Origin: Spirochaetota bacterium | GTDB taxonomy: Bacteria > Spirochaetota > UBA4802 > JAFGDQ01 | Length of the DNA stretch: 32,184 nt | Assembly: GCA_043803405.1 (NCBI GenBank) | Contig: JAZDKB010000054.1 | Coordinates: forward strand, 1 to 32,184 | Direction: 5' to 3' | Shown here: positions 3,001 through 15,000 of the stretch, piece by piece | How positions within the stretch are numbered: position 1 is the first letter of the stretch | Layout: the number at the start of each line of letters is the position of its first letter | Made by a program: the position numbers

Positions 3001-6000
3001 AAAAGGACTCCCTTAAAACTATAAATAGCTATAAAATTAATAAACTAATAGTTATGGCTCAAAAAGATTTTAATTTTATTCATGAATTTAATAATTTCTG
3101 CATTGACGATTCTCCAAAGTATCTCAAAAATACTTTGTACTGGCTTATTCAGCATGCAGTTGATTTTAACTTGTCCCTCGGTGATGTCATAGACTCACTG
3201 AATGCCGCGAACAACAAAGGCAAGCACGGCAAAATGTGTTACCTGGTCGGCGTAATGCGAAACAAGGCCGGGAACAATTCCCGCGGCCTCAAGGTGATCA
3301 CAAAGCCGGAATTTGTCCAGGCAAAAGAGTATTTCAGCGAGCGTTTCGGCCATTGCATTGAGTATTTAAAATCATACAGCTTTGACTGGACAGCCGGGGA
3401 GCTTCGGTATACTCTCAAAGATCCGGCCAAAGACAGATCTTATCTTGCTGAATTTTTTAAATTTGTTGTTGAAGATATAAAAAAAGCTGTAGGGGTTTCT
3501 TTATCTCACGTTGAGGTTGCTTAAAGTATTTGTGTTTTTGTGTGACCGGTATTATTATTAAAAAATGTATTCATAGGTTGTTTATTGTTTTTTAGCTGTT
3601 TTAGGCTTTACAGTTTGGCCTGTACGGCGTTTTATTTATTTAGCTAATGCATAGGTTATCCCGTTCAGGCTGTTTATCTTAAAAAATTCATATTTTTATG
3701 CCGGCTGCTTATTGTGTGTTTGTTGAATTTGAAAGGTAAAGTGGTAGCAAATTCAATTATAGGCAGGTAAGTGAAATGAGAGTATTAATCGCGGAGGATG
3801 AACAGGGCTTTGGTATTGTTTACAAAAGATTGATGGGGAAATGGGGTTTTGATTTTGACCTGGTCAATAACGGCAGGGACGCCGTTAGTCGTGCTGTCGA
3901 GAATGAAGGCAAATACGATATCTGTCTCATGGATATCGACATGCCTGTTATGGACGGCTGCGAGGCTGCAAAGCTGATTCGTTTAAAGACAAAGTATTTG
4001 CCGATAATTGCAGTAACGGGTGATGCCCGCTTAAAGAATAAGTATTCCGAATTCGGAATGGATGCTTACATAATGAAGCCGTTTAGTTTTAACGAGCTTC
4101 AGGAAAAGATAATCGAGTTAAGCATAAAGTCCGAAAAAATAACATACATAGATAATGAATTACATATTGAAAAGGAGATGCCGATGGATAAACAACATGC
4201 AGAGGAGTTGAGGGAGCTTGCGAAGAAAGATTTACGAAAAGTGAAATTTTTTGATGATCCCGGAGCTGCTGTTGTTGTACATAAGAATGTAGTGAACAAG
4301 ATATCGTATGATCTTAGTATAAAAAAACAGTCCCTGACAGTTTTTCTTAATCGTGATACGGAGAAGCCAACCCGCTGTATATTATACAGAGAAATTCCAC
4401 ACCTTATGCCGCAGGAATTCCTTACGGAAGATGAATATGATAAGTCAATTAAAACAGAAGATCAGGATTTACAGGAGTATAATAAACTTATTTTAAAACC
4501 CGAGGAAAAATAGTTTCTAAAATTATAAAGAGTTCCCCTGCCCGCTTAATTTGTTTTTATCTCTAATCTGGTTCAATTTATCTTCAGGAGTTAAATCATG
4601 TTGAAAAAATATCTGATGGTTGTTTTGTTTTTATTATTAACGGGCAGCTTATCCCCGGCCGGTAATTCTACAAAAGACAATTCATGGATTGTTATAAACG
4701 CATTGCTTGTTGATAAAAATAATGTCACAATAAAGCTGATCTATTTTGATTCCCCGGCAACAAACGTTAAAGCCAATGCAAGGAGATCCTGTAAAGATGG
4801 CGTTAATATAATTCTTCCTGAATACATGTTGAAGAAATACGAAGGTGATCCCCTCAGAGTTGATTTTGACTTAAAAAATGCAAAGTATAAAATTTATCAG
4901 AAATCAGGAGATAAGATTATTTCTTCAGGCAGCCTAATGCTTGAACTATAATGTAAATATTGGCTTATTGTAAATAATTCTTGATTTTTCCATCTTTTAC
5001 TCTTCTCTATTTGGCCTGTATTGCGTTTTATTTATCCTTTTAATATAATTGGTTGTTTTTTTAAAATTTTTTAGAGTAGGGTAGGGGTGTCAGTATTCTT
5101 TTATAAAGTAATACTTTATATGTTCTGTTATTTCCGCAGCAGTTCAGCCGCTTCCTTTAGAATTCCCGGTTCTTTTATTTTTACAAGTTTCTGCGGCGAT
5201 TCCTGAATTTTTTCCATTGCACTGTAAAACCGGTCGAGTACATCACCTTCGACCGTAGGTATCAAGAATATATGTGTATGAGGAATACGTTTTCCGCGTG
5301 CATATAGGCACACAAAATCAGGCTTAAGGGTTTTCATTATTTTATTGGCTGCCCGATGAGCCAGTTTAAAAAGACTCACTGTTTCTTCTTCAGTCATCTC
5401 GTGCCACCATAGTACATGCCGCTTCGGAATAACAAGGCAATGTCCTTTTGAGTACGGGTTTATATCAAGTATTACCATGCTCAGTTCATCTTCCATAACC
5501 TTATAAGCAGGTGTTTTGCCGGATACGATATCGCAGAATACGCATTTATGTTTACTCATTCTTGTCTCTGGAATAAATTATTTTTAAAATATATTTTCAT
5601 TTTTGAAAATAATCATGCCTAGCCGCTGGAAAGAAACACCTTTTTTTAAAGCATATTTATAAAAAGGTTTCCCGTTTTCCAATTCTGCATCAAAATAATT
5701 AAAAATAATATTTCTATATTTCTTAATATCCTTTAAAAGTTCAGACAGGTGAGTCGAGAGCAGAAAAATATGATCTTTATAACCCATCATTGAAGAAATT
5801 ACAGTTAAAGAAGCATCATAAGCATCTCTGTGATTTGTTCCTTTAAATAATTCATCTATTATCACAAAAATATTTTTACCACTTTTGCATTGCTCTGCTA
5901 TTTCTTTCATTCGTTTTACTTCACTGTAAAAATAACTGTAGCCAGCCCGGATATTGTCTTCGGTATTGATGCTTGTAATTAGTCCGTCAAAACAGGATAA

Positions 6001-12000: not shown

Positions 12001-15000
12001 ATCGACCCAGAGCACATCCTTTATGTTTTCAGGGTTTTTTGACTCCGAAACATATGCATCTATCGAATTAATTGCGATTTCCTCAACATGTCCGTCTAAA
12101 AAAAATACCGCGACCTTCTCTTTTTCGCCATACATAATTCTTGTAATGACCGATGTCAGAGGAATTACGCCTGTAGGCAGAATCTCTTTGCCAATAAAGC
12201 TGTTCAGGAAAGAGCTTTTACCTGCTTTAAACTGTCCCAGAACAGCAACATCAATGATTTTATTTTGCGAAAAAAGACCGTCAATAATCTGTATGTTTCT
12301 GTTCAGAGTTTTAATGCTGTGTTTAACACAAATTTCTTTTATGGTTTGCAATAATGTCTGCATGATTCAATTCCTTAAAAAATCGAAAAAATATATCAAA
12401 TATTTTTAATAAATAATAAAAATACTACAAAAACAATTATAATCACTATTGTAAACGCAGTTATCGCGTATTTAATAGACATAATGATTTTCTTTTTTTT
12501 CGGTATACCCGGGAAATGACTGTAGCCTTCATAAGCATTAATAAAAGCCGCAATAGCTCCCAGTATTCCAAAAATAGTTCCAAGAACCACGAGACCTGCG
12601 AAAAAACTTACTCCCATTATACTATTACATCCATTGGTGGTGGATTACATCCCTAAAAGGAATTAATATCTTTTCCTTTGAGGGATTGTTTTACCCGTTC
12701 AGGTAATAAGCTCGACTTTTTTAATATGGTTTCATTTTATACCCTCAATGAGTATAATAATAAGTTTTGGGGGAATTGATAATTTTGTATTATAGCCATG
12801 GTTAATTTCAGGAACGCTCCGGCATCTACAGATGGAGGTTTGAAAATAAAAAACCGCCCTTTATGCTAACAATTCCCCTGCAGGAGTCATTAGCCATTGA
12901 GGCGGTTTGGGTGAACTCCATCACCTTAAATTAGTGATAGTTATAAATCTGTAAAATACTAATACATAAAAAGTCATTATTCATTTTTATGTCAAGATAA
13001 TTTTTATCATGTTACAAAATGAAACGTCGGGTATTTTTTCATATTTTAACAAAATAATCTGAATAATATATTGACAGTCATTCAATATATATGCCATGTT
13101 TAATAACATTAAAGTGGGCGATGGAGTTCGCCGTTAATCGCTTAAGCTCGCTGATGACTCCTACCATAGCATAGAACCATCTAATTACGAATTTATATTC
13201 CGAATAAAAATAGAACTTCCATTCGGCGGAAATGTCGCGTAAAAGAGGATGGCCGATTGTATCTAAAAATATCGGTTATGGAACAGGAAATAAAAAGAAT
13301 CCGAAAAGCGGCTTATAAGACGCTGCATCTGATATTCGTAAAGTACGTAGGTCCCGGTGCCTACCGTATCGTTAATTCTGAAGCTGAAGGTGGCATTCCG
13401 GTACTGACGGACTACATATCCTTTCATTATCATGAACCGCTTATTCGTGTAAAAGATATTGGTAAAAACATTATTTACCTGGTGACCCAGGAGCGGTTTA
13501 AGTTATCTTTTCTCGGAAAGATGATACAACTCGATCCCGGACTAGAGACTAAGCTCCACGCATGGTTTCCCTTTCTATGGGGCGAAGGCACGGCTGAGGA
13601 CGTCGGACGGTATAAATCGATTCTCAGGCAGTTAAAGGAATTAGCCGATATCACGGTGCCACCAAATTACGGGCAATAACATGCGATTACAATTGTTTAA
13701 TGAATCAGTTATTAAATGGATTTTTAAATACCGCAAGTTTGCCTAACTCATGTTCTATTTCCAACAGGCGGTTGTATTTAGCAATACGCTCGCTTCTGCA
13801 TGCGGAACCGGTCTTGATCTGTCCGCCGCCCATTGCAACTGCAAAGTCGGCCATAAATGTATCTTCTGTCTCGCCGGATCGATGAGAGATTACGAATCCC
13901 CATCCTGCTTCTTTGCATAAATTTATTGCTTCAATGGTTTCCGTGACGGTTCCTATCTGGTTCAGTTTTATAAGTACTGCATTGGCCGTCTTTTCCTTTA
14001 TTCCTTTTTCGATGAACTTCGTGTTTGTTACGAATATATCATCACCCACTATCTGGATTTTTTCGCCGAGAGCTGCTGTATGTTCTTTGAATCCATTCCA
14101 GTCGTTTTCGTCAAGCCCGTCTTCTATGGAAACGATAGGATATTTGTCAATCCAGCTTTTATAAAACACAGTCATCTCCGAACTGTTCTTGTTTCCCTGG
14201 CCTGATTTCGCAAGGACATACATGCCTTTTTCGAAAAATGAACTTGCCGCAGGGTCTAACGCAAGGGCAACGTCTTTACCCGGCTCATATCCTGCTGCTT
14301 TTATAGCCTCTAAAATGACTTCGCAGGCCTCATCGTTGCTTTTGAGATTTGGAGCAAATCCGCCTTCATCGCCTACTCCTGTTGAATATCCTTTTTTGCC
14401 GAGTATCTTTTTAAGAGCGTGAAATGTTTCAGCACCATAGCGCAATGCTTCCGCGAAAGAAGGAGCACCGATCGGCATTACCATGAACTCCTGAAAATCA
14501 ACGCTGTTTTCAGCATGTTTCCCGCCGTTTAAAATGTTCATCATAGGTACAGGAATACAGTAAGAAGTTGCAGGGCATAGGTATGCATAAAGAGGTGTAT
14601 TTGCAGTAATTGCGGACGCTTTGGCTAAAGCCATGGACACACCGAGTATTGCATTTGCTCCGAGTTTACCCTTATTCGGAGTGCCGTCTAGTTCTATCAA
14701 GAGATGGTCGATCTCTGTTTGTTTAGACGGGTCCATGCCTACCAGCTTCGGAGCTAAGATATTGTTTACATTCGATACTGCCTTCAGCACGCCTTTGCCG
14801 TCGTAACGTTTTTTATCACCGTCTCGGAGTTCCACGGCCTCATTCTTGCCTGTAGAAGCGCCGGAAGGTACTGAAGAAGAAACTTTGATATTATTATCAA
14901 GCGTCATAAATACTCTGACGGTCGGATTGCCTCTTGAATCTAGAATTTCTATAGCACTGATTGCTTTAATTTTATTATTCATTGTGTTCTCCTTAAAAAT

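Follow-up and report, generated by a model that had tools for sequence, protein, structure and literature searches.

A dynamin-like GTPase gene behind a fluoride riboswitch on a spirochaetal plasmid, and the linkage of its family to fluoride aptamers

The plasmid and its three fluoride aptamers

The window, i.e. the whole stretch of 32,184 nucleotides analysed here, is a contig representing a circular plasmid of 32 kb, with a 141-bp terminal overlap and an MmeI-type gene that is split across both contig ends; ParA and integrase genes are also found on it. Rfam cmscan yields exactly three matches to the fluoride riboswitch family RF01734 in the window (gathering score 34), with the same scores as previously listed, and these three are also the only RF01734 aptamers in the genome (3.98 Mb). 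The features discussed below are the following, where DLP stands for the bacterial dynamin-like protein and RS for a riboswitch.

12874-12934, minus strand: RS1, RF01734 aptamer heading the DLP operon (57.8 bits, full model 1-64; 68.3 bits with our own model R1)
12840-12908, minus strand: intrinsic terminator with stem 12851-12908 and U-run 12840-12850, which overlaps RS1 in the 3' half of the aptamer
12396-12617, minus strand: TM73, 73-aa membrane protein with two hydrophobic helices in its translation and a conserved NAYEGYSHFP-like loop (alignments A3/A4)
10738-12363, minus strand: DLP, 541 aa, BDLP/IniA/mitofusin class (Dynamin_N E=4e-22, 79.4 bits)
11659-12363, minus strand: GTPase domain of the DLP, residues 1 to ~235, with P-loop G43-S51 (12211-12237) and switch-I T70
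11944-11955 and 11770-11781, minus strand: GTPase motifs DTPG (137-140) and TKAD (195-198) in the translated sequence
10954-11112, minus strand: putative trunk-tip segment, residues 418-470, an unstructured loop and then the conserved hydrophobic stretch DxLWFLxPMxxF
9967-10584, minus strand: Cys-phosphatase, 205 aa, with HCX5R motif HCQGGSDRT and, at the N-terminus of the translated sequence, a hydrophobic helix
8438-9970, 6933-8441 and 5584-6921, minus strand: three tandem MutS-domain-V ATPases (MutS_V 1e-16, 1e-20 and 1.5e-30)
5128-5559, minus strand: HIT-family hydrolase, last operon gene (HIT 2.9e-16)
13108-13170, plus strand: RS3, RF01734 aptamer divergent from RS1 (51.3 bits)
13257-13679, plus strand: 140-aa ORF behind RS3, no assigned family
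15053-15115, minus strand: RS2, RF01734 aptamer (54.8 bits)
13705-15069, minus strand: second enolase behind RS2 (TIGR01060 658 bits; Enolase_N from residue 34)

All ORFs listed in the preliminary description are present. Within the RS1 operon, the Cys-phosphatase gene follows the DLP gene after a gap of 153 nt, and its product matches Y_phosphatase3 (2.6e-10) as well as PTP-NADK and Y_phosphatase2 above their cut-offs, DSPc remaining below (29.4 versus 33.5 bits). The MutS-domain-V genes overlap or are separated by gaps of at most 11 nt; their products give no MutS_I or MutS_II match and are devoid of a mismatch-binding domain, the third showing a weak MutS_III match below the cut-off (25.9 versus 34.1 bits). 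Judging from the translations, two operon products besides the DLP are membrane-associated, namely TM73, which matches no Pfam family, and the phosphatase with its N-terminal helix.

Concerning the other two aptamers, the listed start of the enolase ORF overlaps RS2, so that the true start lies probably around residue 34. The other enolase copy of this genome is chromosomal (C48:3957-4817), in line with the earlier designation of the plasmid gene as a second copy. The 140-aa ORF has no match in Pfam, NCBIfam or Atlas and a single partner in its BLAST cluster (ORF L011:555-992, minus strand), which also sits behind a divergent aptamer (L011:1007-1071, minus strand). CrcB was not found in this genome, which is 94% complete, and its aptamers head the DLP operon, the 140-aa ORF and the enolase, leaving no riboswitch-controlled transporter.

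The expression platform of RS1

The terminator downstream of RS1 consists of the hairpin AAACCGCCU...AGGGCGGUUU followed by UUUUUUAUUUU (RNAfold of 12838-12934, minus strand), with a folding energy of -34.5 kcal/mol and a z-score of -4.85, none of 200 shuffled sequences folding equally well. In the RF01734 alignment, the AACCGCC segment of the aptamer is shared with the 5' arm of the terminator, and RS1 together with this overlapping terminator constitutes an ON-switch expression platform. Without fluoride, the terminator re-using AACCGCC would form and transcription would end, while fluoride would let the aptamer fold and RNA polymerase continue into the TM73-DLP-phosphatase-MutSV(x3)-HIT operon; the anatomy of aptamer and terminator thus suggests that the operon is induced by fluoride. 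Since a spacer of 230 nt with a weak promoter-like site (12782-12754) separates the terminator from the TM73 gene, some riboswitch-independent transcription may occur. A search for sequencing runs that contain this DNA listed no RNA run. Across the 92 aptamers from DLP loci, 97.9% of cells are paired, and compensatory changes occur in five of the seven pairs.

Structure and conservation of the dynamin-like protein

The IniA/BDLP architecture originally attributed to the protein is borne out by the fold. The AF2 model (pLDDT 91.6, pTM 0.83) retrieves IniA (6j72, 1e-19) as top Foldseek hit, followed by BDLP (2j69, 1e-18), and VIA gives Z-scores of 26.6 for Fzo1, 22.7 for IniA and 18 for BDLP; the PDB profile search finds 5owv_C (4e-27), IniA (1e-22) and BDLP 2j68 (1e-20). 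Against NCBIfam, a weak match to CrfC is obtained (E 1e-5), and DynmDynABac reaches only 38 bits where its cut-off is 1600. Alignment A1, with 73 sequences, shows G43, G48, K49, P68, T70, D137, T138, P139, G140, K196 and D198 to be invariant, and with its G1-G4 motifs intact the protein is predicted to be a catalytically intact GTPase.

The same alignment reveals that the full-length neck, the trunk and the hydrophobic segment are kept across the family, the last with the consensus 'PDI..FD...DLLWFLxPM..F', in which P456 is invariant and F444 nearly so. In the AF2 model, the two longest helices (357-417 and 457-518) flank a loop (418-447) and a short helix (448-454), and the conserved segment falls between them. 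By analogy with the BDLP paddle, these helices may pair with the loop at the tip and the loop may contact the membrane, which makes the trunk-tip segment a putative membrane-inserting paddle.

Linkage of the family to fluoride aptamers

It had been claimed that genes of this kind sit behind fluoride riboswitches as a rule, and this was reproduced in our own samples of metagenome loci, species genomes and the window's order. The metagenome sample comprises the best 80 of at least 538 DLP relatives and is therefore biased towards the query. With model R1, a same-strand upstream aptamer is found in 67 of these 80 loci, at up to 300 nt in 58 (median ~71 nt from aptamer end to DLP start codon), at 301-1200 nt in 2 and at 1.2-2.9 kb in 7; no upstream aptamer is seen in 13, 3 of which have no upstream sequence, and L084 and L092 show none across 5 kb. 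An Rfam match above the gathering score lies upstream on the same strand in 18 of 19 metagenome loci, ending 21-121 nt before the start in 17 of them. The species genomes, 22 besides the one studied here, contribute 25 DLP loci. The aptamer is at most ~700 nt away in 18 of these and lies 2.3-5.7 kb upstream on the same strand in 5, giving 23 loci with a same-strand aptamer within 6 kb; the other 2 have no upstream aptamer, and one genome (G547) encodes a DLP and has no aptamer genome-wide. Finally, all 13 Dynamin_N genes of the window's order, which come from 11 of the 41 genomes of that order, follow an aptamer, so that no constitutive DLP exists in these genomes.

Since each genome holds only one to four such aptamers, this linkage is far beyond chance. 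In five genomes the sole aptamer directly precedes the DLP gene (G012, G033, G261, G316 and G581) and in two it heads an enolase-DLP operon (G294 and G386), which also upholds the earlier remark that the DLP gene frequently comes first in the regulated unit or makes up all of it, and that an enolase gene is a frequent neighbour. After dereplication, a near aptamer is retained in 57 of 75 clusters at 90% identity, 34 of 38 at 70% and 12 of 15 at 50%. The DLP group forms two deep clades of ~540-560 aa and ~575-615 aa, both with aptamers and together spanning at least three phyla, and in the tree of 95 proteins the nine rows without an aptamer represent nine separate changes. Membership of the DLP in the fluoride regulon is thus considered highly probable at the regulatory level.

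The genes around the DLP include the classical fluoride-response genes for enolase, Na+/H+ exchanger, CrcB, CLC and USP. Enolase and Na_H_Exchanger each occur at 22 loci, MFS at 11, a metallophosphatase-dUTPase_2 at 9, small AAA_22 ATPases at 8, and small AAA_16 ATPases and His_Phos_1 at 5 each. Gene orders include RS-enolase-TM74-DLP (G294), RS-enolase-DLP-CLC (G386), RS-DLP-Na_H_Exchanger (G012) and the recurrent RS-metallophosphatase-dUTPase_2-DLP operons; CrcB shares the DLP gene cluster in G323, G429, G315 and G237, and DLP pairs of 677 and 545 aa occur in L073 and L091. Within the window's order, TM73 is a companion of the DLP gene and adjoins it in 11 genomes (E<=2e-22, HMM from alignment A4); weak HMM matches occur in L001 and L051. 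HIT recurs beside the DLP in six loci of the clustered set and in G247; it lies downstream in L015, L041, L050, L068, L070 and G247, immediately so in L041, L050, L070 and G247. The Cys-phosphatase clusters with no other DLP locus and, of the 92 loci in the set, only 3 have MutS_V beside the DLP; these genes are not conserved companions.

It is nevertheless important to note that the designation of the DLP as a "core member" of the regulon was overstated. Carriers amount to 12 of 301, 7 of 301 and 1 of 201 genomes in three phylum samples, which defines the DLP as a lineage-patchy accessory member that cannot be a general fluoride defence; only in some lineages does it dominate the regulon, as in the window's order, where DLP genes take 13 of the 30 aptamers found across 41 genomes.

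Proposed function and alternative explanations

The best explanation overall, to which we give about an even chance, combines an ON riboswitch with a fluoride-triggered, membrane-protecting DLP. The protein would most likely be made only under fluoride stress, would bind the cytoplasmic membrane via its conserved hydrophobic trunk segment and, through GTP-driven assembly, would seal, fuse or reshape the stressed membrane. Fold and hydrophobic segment point to a membrane-remodelling activity, and a protective role under fluoride may be envisaged, given that diverse bacteria lyse when exposed to fluoride (PMC12700350 and the corresponding preprint); the membrane-protective mechanism itself is held tentatively, at somewhat under even odds.

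An unlikely alternative is that the DLP has no specific membrane task and, like the enzymes co-regulated with it, is over-produced either to replace a fluoride-inhibited activity or to sequester metal-fluoride in a GDP-MFx complex. Fluoride and its Mg and Al complexes inhibit phosphoryl-transfer enzymes, and dynamin-family G domains bind GDP-AlF4-. Phosphate-handling enzymes (enolase, phosphatases, HIT, MutS-V and small AAA ATPases) dominate the regulon around DLPs, so that a non-membrane rationale fits its composition equally well, and a 2024 review proposes that overexpression counters such inhibition (PMC11139923). However, with all 13 DLP genes of the window's order riboswitch-controlled, and no other DLP in the plasmid-bearing genome, no housekeeping DLP exists whose activity would have to be replaced, and the conserved neck, trunk and hydrophobic segment would be needless for a pure nucleotide or fluoride sink.

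It also seems quite unlikely that the DLP supports a fluoride-induced surge of transporters (CrcB, CLC, Na+/H+ exchanger, MFS), rather than repairing the bilayer; it might, for instance, arrange the surrounding membrane domains or the turnover there. Its riboswitch-controlled clusters do contain these transporters, and TM73 is a small membrane protein conserved as its neighbour; yet at many loci the DLP gene stands alone under an aptamer of its own, the genome studied here lacks a riboswitch-controlled transporter, and we know of no BDLP with such a role.

A very unlikely reading is that the DLP, together with MutS-V, HIT and, elsewhere, the metallophosphatase-dUTPase_2, has DNA or the nucleotide pools as its target during fluoride stress. 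The window's operon and the recurrent dUTPase_2 operons would fit, as would the analogy with CrfC, the clamp-binding DLP of E. coli, and mutS-like genes with crcB RNAs were noted in 2010, with DNA-damage stress suggested (PMC2864571). Against this, MutS_V accompanies only 3 of 92 loci, most DLPs stand alone behind the aptamer, and the closest structures (IniA, BDLP, Cj-DLP and mitofusins) are membrane-active. Finally, that the gene is a mere passenger of mobile fluoride-resistance islands or plasmids is hardly credible and already disfavoured: the whole fluoride module of this genome lies on a plasmid, was not found in same-genus or same-family genomes and belongs to a patchily distributed family, but the close aptamers of 58 of 80 loci, the recurrence in two deep clades and the sole-aptamer genomes speak against proximity without function.

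Comparison with known systems

The published fluoride-riboswitch regulon, with crcB/Fluc, CLC-F, Na+/H+ antiporters, enolase, pyrophosphatase, HAD, formate hydrogen lyase, chorismate mutase, mutS-like and USP genes, shares its aptamer family and ON-switch logic with the DLP operon, and DLP genes lie among its genes. Dynamin-like GTPases are not named in it in the portions covered of PMC11139923, PMC2864571 and PMC7266159, and a literature search excluding Baker 2012 and its supplement retrieved no dynamin-fluoride riboswitch link, in agreement with the earlier statement that such a protein had not been described. Outside Baker 2012, then, a fluoride-stress role for a membrane-remodelling GTPase family, to which the linkage points, was not found in print.

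The best sequence-profile matches among solved structures are BDLP of Nostoc punctiforme (2J68/2J69/2W6D), ~150 residues longer than the DLP, and DLP1/DLP2 of Campylobacter jejuni (5OWV). In the DLP, two long helices probably form a hairpin whose hydrophobic connection would be analogous to the paddle, and the paired relatives in L073 and L091 recall the C. jejuni pair, although the DLP is usually a single gene; neither system has a known riboswitch or fluoride link. The highest VIA scores (26.4-26.6) belong to minimal GTPase constructs of mitofusin/Fzo1 (5YEW and 9KFD), which match the G domain and first helical bundle over ~300 residues (rmsd ~3 A, identity 14-15%); unlike the DLP, these proteins are eukaryotic fusogens of the outer mitochondrial membrane and carry transmembrane anchors.

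IniA of Mycobacterium (6J72/6J73), a drug-induced BDLP made on chemical stress that mediates membrane fission (PMC6715688), likewise has a G domain followed by a helical neck and trunk, aligning over 459 residues in VIA. Its identity to the DLP is 14-16% and its chain has 606 aa; the DLP has no iniB/iniC-like neighbours and its signal is a cis-acting fluoride riboswitch in place of a drug-responsive pathway. The proposed role is modelled on DynA of Bacillus subtilis, which acts in membrane surveillance and is implicated in the protection of membrane integrity against antibiotics and phage (PMC8844932, PMC12998192) and differs as a two-headed fusion of ~1,190 aa without a riboswitch. If the membrane-protecting reading is true, the DLP would be a fluoride-triggered counterpart to BDLPs that respond to stress, IniA and DynA among them.

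Riboswitch-controlled genes of the plasmid

When the window was searched with Rfam cmscan, three fluoride riboswitch aptamers (RF01734, gathering score 34), all covering model positions 1-64, were recovered with the same coordinates and bit scores as in the preliminary description, and the genes it had placed behind them are likewise all present:

12874-12934, minus strand: aptamer RS1, 57.8 bits
12396-12617, minus strand: TM73, a 73-aa two-helix membrane protein (translation)
10738-12363, minus strand: dynamin-like protein (DLP), 541 aa, Dynamin_N E 4e-22
9967-10584, minus strand: Cys-phosphatase, 205 aa
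8438-9970, 6933-8441 and 5584-6921, minus strand: three ATPases with MutS_V matches
5128-5559, minus strand: HIT hydrolase, by family match
15053-15115, minus strand: aptamer RS2, 54.8 bits
13705-15069, minus strand: enolase behind RS2
13108-13170, plus strand: aptamer RS3, 51.3 bits
13257-13679, plus strand: 140-aa open reading frame behind RS3, without a family match

The enolase is indeed a second copy, the first being located on contig C48. As a whole-genome search of the 3.98-Mb, 94% complete assembly revealed no RF01734 aptamer beyond these three, every riboswitch-controlled fluoride gene of this genome is plasmid-borne. None of the three heads a transporter gene; CrcB (PF02537) was not found in the 94% complete genome, and its sole CLC is a 579-aa open frame on contig C18 without an aptamer.

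The contig ends share a direct overlap of 141 bp, and an MmeI-type restriction-modification gene is split over them (1-1206 and 30481-32184), which, together with the ParA and integrase genes, identifies the window as a closed circular plasmid of about 32.04 kb. Genes carried on it include ParA, an integrase-AAA fusion, a Gp49/HTH pair, SocA_Panacea and DUF4209/DUF7380. Mis-binning of the plasmid is not supported by its composition, which is unremarkable for this genome (GC 0.381 versus 0.391; 25th of 40 contigs in tetranucleotide distance), the host assignment of a small contig being unprovable as such. A search for sequencing runs that contain this DNA listed DNA runs of a single study, in which it makes up a small share, and no RNA run.

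Regarding the individual products, the Cys-phosphatase displays the HCX5R motif as HCQGGSDRT, and since a hydrophobic helix (IIPFVFVIFLLTGW) lies N-terminal to this domain, the protein is probably membrane-anchored; it also shows weak similarity to the lipid/inositol phosphatase families PTPlike_phytase and Myotub-related. The three ATPases cannot be regarded as MutS mismatch-repair proteins, as they possess neither the N-terminal mismatch-binding domain I nor the set of domains II-V: at E<=0.01 they match MutS_V alone, plus a sub-threshold MutS_III in one of them, and their NCBIfam MutS1/MutS2 scores all fall far under the cut-offs. For the 140-aa frame an Atlas search yielded no usable relative, and clustering gave it one partner (L011:555-992, minus strand, in genome G039), which likewise lies behind a divergent aptamer (L011:1007-1071, minus strand, 38.5 bits) adjoining a DLP gene.

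Predicted switch mechanism

In a model-fitted alignment of 92 aptamers, taken from the window and from the DLP loci of relatives, 97.9% of the helix cells are paired, five of the seven pairs in helices P1 and P3 show compensatory changes, and the covariation score was reached by none of 500 shuffles. Folding of the RS1 region (12838-12934, minus strand) gave the aptamer P1 and a strong hairpin (-34.5 kcal/mol, z -4.85). The AACCGCC segment of the aptamer doubles as the 5' arm of this terminator hairpin, whose loop exceeds 8 nt and which is followed by a UUUUUUAUUUU run; this is the classical layout in which fluoride binding blocks the terminator, and RS1 is thus predicted to be an ON switch with competing aptamer and terminator. 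By a crude test, a T-run precedes the start codon in 38 of the 55 DLP-proximal aptamers examined, and RS3 with its leader showed no significant structure on folding (z +0.82). Between the RS1 terminator (12840-12908) and the first open reading frame lies a spacer of 230 nt containing one weak promoter-like site, so that part of the transcription of the DLP operon may be independent of the riboswitch.

Architecture of the dynamin-like protein

The DLP matches Dynamin_N (PF00350) with 79.4 bits against a cut-off of 27. An exhaustive phmmer search at E<=1e-30 gathered relatives in 696 clusters (50% identity); most of the best 150 have a length of 520-600 aa, and they align over their full extent. 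Among 73 aligned sequences the G1-G4 motifs (GxxxxGKS, T70, DTPG and TKxD) are invariant, namely the P-loop residues G43, G48 and K49, the switch-I residue T70, DTPG at 137-140, and K196 and D198, as are N110, N113, P456 and R482. The AlphaFold2 model derived from this alignment (pLDDT 91.6, pTM 0.83) places the G domain up to about residue 235, followed by long helices at 235-284, 305-350, 357-417 and 457-518, the last two of which are also the longest. They flank a loop at 418-447 and a further, short helix, and here the alignment shows conserved hydrophobic residues, DLLWFLxPM..F. This part of the protein (residues 418-470) is a putative trunk-tip segment that could insert into the membrane in the manner of the paddle of the bacterial dynamin-like protein BDLP.

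Comparison with solved structures points to the same class. Foldseek ranked IniA (E 1e-19), BDLP and the Campylobacter DLP pair at the top, a sequence profile matched 5owv_C (4e-27), IniA (1e-22) and BDLP (1e-20), and VIA-align returned Z values of 26.6 for Fzo1/mitofusin constructs comprising G domain plus bundle, 22.7 for IniA (459 residues) and 18.0 for BDLP (470 aligned). The helical neck and trunk bundles of the model can be superposed on those of solved BDLPs by both structural methods, so the IniA/BDLP architecture proposed earlier holds for the neck/trunk fold, which matches IniA, BDLP and the Campylobacter protein. Taken together, the invariant motifs, the model and the structural matches describe a compact BDLP/mitofusin-class GTPase that is predicted to be catalytically intact. 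It is not an IniA orthologue: identity amounts to 14-16%, and its operon neighbours are TM73, Cys-phosphatase, MutS-V and HIT genes, not iniB/iniC.

Riboswitch linkage in species genomes

Among 41 genomes around the host, ranging from same genus to same order, the DLP occurs in 11 and RF01734 in 18. An aptamer directly precedes each of the 13 Dynamin_N genes found there (E<=1e-8); this accounts for 13 of the 30 aptamers of the sample, which for the same reason offers no riboswitch-unlinked DLP as a negative control. For instance, three of the four aptamers of genome G037 precede DLPs (546, 616 and 605 aa) and the fourth an exchanger. Seven sampled non-DLP aptamers of the order (L108-L114, from G011, G037, G022, G010, G014, G021 and G034) all stand before Na_H_Exchanger-family genes of about 395-445 aa; CrcB is encoded in 11 of the 41 genomes, and a listed aptamer directly precedes it in G001 only. 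The Na_H_Exchanger may be the main riboswitch-controlled transporter of this order. As the same-genus and same-family genomes have no DLP, the host probably acquired it together with the plasmid.

The wider tally covers 22 genomes of other species, with 25 DLP loci in total. A same-strand aptamer lies within about 700 nt of the DLP in 18 loci and 2.3-5.7 kb upstream in five (G294, G247, G386, G323 and G501), the distant aptamer being the only one of the genome in G294, G386 and G323. One further locus encodes a second DLP, whose nearest aptamer lies 9.6 kb away, and G547 has a DLP and no aptamer anywhere in the genome. The sole aptamer of the genome directly precedes the DLP gene in G012, G033, G261, G316 and G581, and heads an enolase-DLP operon in G294 and G386. 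Mutual exclusion of DLP and CrcB, which would fit the 41 relatives (11 with DLP, 11 with CrcB, none with both), is refuted by eight of 12 further DLP-carrying genomes that also encode CrcB, sometimes in the same cluster.

A FastTree phylogeny of 95 DLPs resolved two well-supported clades, one of 17 tips (about 575-615 aa) and one of 78 tips (about 540-560 aa), and in both of them most genes are aptamer-linked. Nine aptamer-less rows correspond to nine separate changes on this tree (three rows without upstream sequence being left uncounted), so aptamer-less DLPs are scattered and do not form one clade.

Riboswitch linkage in metagenome loci

The best 80 of at least 538 relatives, obtained with the DLP alignment against metagenome contigs, were used as a second sample. 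At the Rfam gathering score, 18 of the first 19 loci have a same-strand aptamer upstream of the DLP, ending 21-121 nt ahead of its start in 17 of the 18. A covariance model (R1) was built from 20 of the metagenome-locus aptamers and run on all loci:

Same-strand upstream aptamers in 80 metagenome loci (R1 scan; distance from the projected DLP start)
Up to 300 nt: 58 loci
301-1200 nt: 2 loci
1.2-2.9 kb: 7 loci
Absent: 13 loci (3 without upstream sequence, 1 with 246 nt)

Where the R1 score is low, the aptamer has a long P3 insert and still exceeds the Rfam cut-off (in L014, R1 29.7 and Rfam 41.4). In the ten remaining aptamer-less loci a permissive Rfam E-value scan detected no upstream aptamer, its sole match lying downstream of the DLP in L064. 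According to the gene maps, the DLP is the second or a later gene in many loci with a distant or absent aptamer, preceded by a metallophosphatase-dUTPase_2 fusion, a Prenyltrans-domain protein, DUF190 or a small AAA ATPase, and the contig often ends before the promoter; in L084 and L092 there is no aptamer in the 5 kb upstream of the DLP. The redundancy of the set is modest: clustering of the 81 full-length DLPs leaves 75 groups at 90% identity, 38 at 70% and 15 at 50%, of which 57, 34 and 12, respectively, include a near aptamer.

The association between this DLP and the fluoride riboswitch is therefore real and strong, and the linkage across species claimed earlier is borne out by the proximal aptamers of both the metagenome and the genome loci. 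Its further characterization as a core regulon member stands in part: the DLP dominates the regulon in some lineages, as in the order of the host, but its distribution is patchy, with the family present in 12 of 301 genomes of the phylum (all within this order), 7 of 301 Bacteroidota genomes (a sample centred on the Prolixibacteraceae genome of L001) and 1 of 201 Bdellovibrionota genomes. Atlas neighbours suggest, as a lead, further members in Verrucomicrobiota, Acidobacteriota and Bacillota. Judged from sequence, the DLPs form a patchily distributed group whose members would nearly always be under fluoride-riboswitch control.

Some metagenome loci display particular arrangements. Over 8.3 kb of the 11.6-kb contig L029, one strand bears seven aptamer matches (at 281, 4862, 6711, 7116, 8087 and 8472, plus neighbours), an unusually dense array around the DLP gene. 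Some loci encode two DLPs, of about 675 aa and about 545-570 aa (L073:1614-3647 and 4962-6599; L091:225-2252 and 3643-5352), in the order aptamer, small AAA, DLP (677), aptamer, metallophosphatase-dUTPase_2, DLP (545). The arrangement is reminiscent of operons with DLP pairs in other bacteria, and the long copies make up a branch that diverges strongly from the rest. Finally, at L019:3296-3435, a DLP gene is followed downstream by a group II intron domain (RF02003, 75.3 bits).

Gene neighbourhood

Neighbours were grouped by BLAST clustering of 783 open reading frames from 92 loci, with Pfam assignment of the cluster representatives:

Families beside the DLP, as number of loci out of 92
Enolase: 22
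Na_H_Exchanger: 22
USP: 11
MFS: 11
Metallophosphatase-dUTPase_2: 9
Small AAA_22 ATPase: 8
DUF190: 7
HIT: 6
Prenyltrans: 6
His_Phos_1: 5
DUF6062: 5
Small AAA_16 ATPase: 5
FGE-sulfatase: 5
MutS_V: 3

HIT is hence a recurrent neighbour, and the phosphatase and MutS-V genes of the window are not conserved partners in this clustering. Individual operons read aptamer-enolase-TM74-DLP in G294, aptamer-enolase-DLP-CLC in G386 and aptamer-DLP-Na_H_Exchanger in G012, while HIT follows the DLP in G247. Further clusters combine an aptamer-CrcB unit with a DLP (G323), an aptamer-DLP unit with CrcB (G429), or an aptamer with a CrcB fragment, TM72 and the DLP in this order (G237). With enolase, CLC, Na_H_Exchanger and CrcB as companions, the DLP is embedded in bona fide fluoride-response clusters.

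The TM73 family (about 73 aa, two membrane helices, without a Pfam family) shares an invariant-rich NAYEGYSHFP-like loop and occurs next to DLPs from each of the two clades, in 11 genomes of the order; its gene either separates the aptamer from the DLP or lies shortly ahead of the aptamer. Besides 12396-12617 (minus strand) in the window it is found in L095, L096, L099, L100, L101 and L103-L107, with weak matches in L001 and L051. In nine loci, a 378-aa fusion of metallophosphatase and dUTPase_2 sits directly behind the aptamer and immediately upstream of the DLP (for example L056:769-1905, L073:3822-4958 and L091:2407-3543). Other recurrent genes of the riboswitch clusters encode small AAA_16/AAA_22 ATPases (about 215-245 aa), DUF6062, FGE-sulfatase-like, Prenyltrans-domain (about 265 aa) and GGGtGRT proteins.

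Possible function

The favoured reading is that fluoride would induce the DLP via the riboswitch and that the protein would then act on the membrane in stress protection. Several lines of evidence argue for such a role: among characterised proteins, its nearest relatives remodel or protect membranes, IniA being reported to mediate membrane fission (PMC6715688) and DynA to exert membrane surveillance against antibiotics and phage (PMC8844932, PMC12998192); fluoride reportedly causes a wide range of bacteria to lyse (PMC12700350); conservation within the family extends over the entire neck and trunk and the hydrophobic segment; and the carriers have no constitutive DLP. The last point also speaks against the spare-copy logic that explains the enolase. 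On the other side, the strong phosphoryl-transfer theme of the regulon fits the idea, put forward in a 2024 review (PMC11139923), of compensation for inhibited enzymes, and the DLP may instead serve as a decoy or sink, or in a nucleotide-linked capacity. It would be a long shot that fluoride is in addition the biochemical trigger, with GDP-bound DLP capturing Mg- or Al-fluoride as a transition-state mimic, locking the G-domain dimer and thus acting as a fluoride-gated tether or seal of membranes, or driving a vesiculation by which damaged membrane is shed; if true, such a DLP would confer exporter-independent fluoride tolerance on organisms like the present host, where CrcB was not found and no transporter is headed by an aptamer.

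Significance and relation to known systems

The structures of bacterial dynamin-like proteins are well described, their physiological triggers mostly not. For a whole DLP group whose inducer would be fluoride, a defined and inexpensive chemical that works through a simple switch in cis, function would become directly testable. To fluoride biology, the group would add a membrane-mechanics component, next to the exporters, pH homeostasis and spare metabolic enzymes through which the response has been described. The gene islands point, moreover, to further riboswitch-controlled genes: TM73, metallophosphatase-dUTPase_2, small AAA ATPases, DUF6062, FGE-sulfatase-like genes and the 140-aa orphan. 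As fluoride tolerance is reported to limit the engineered degradation and synthesis of organofluorines (PMC11139923), new tolerance determinants are also of practical value.

The earlier statement that this kind of fluoride-response protein had not been described holds for the literature searched, with the reservation that a mention in gene tables (Baker 2012, Weinberg 2010 supplements) is possible. Full-text searches returned no paper linking dynamin to the fluoride riboswitch or crcB. The accessible text of the 2024 review lists exporters, Na+/H+ antiporters, pyrophosphatase, HAD, enolase, formate hydrogen lyase and chorismate mutase and does not contain the word dynamin (PMC11139923). Weinberg 2010 names mutS, K+/Cl- transport and formate hydrogen lyase, and neither "dynamin" nor "GTPase" appears in those of its supplements that were covered, a part of the whole (PMC2864571).

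In comparison with known systems, the switch of the window is an ordinary member of the published fluoride riboswitch class, and the DLP, by fold, an ordinary member of the BDLP class, its likeness to IniA being one of architecture only. The new part, as far as could be seen, is the coupling of the two.
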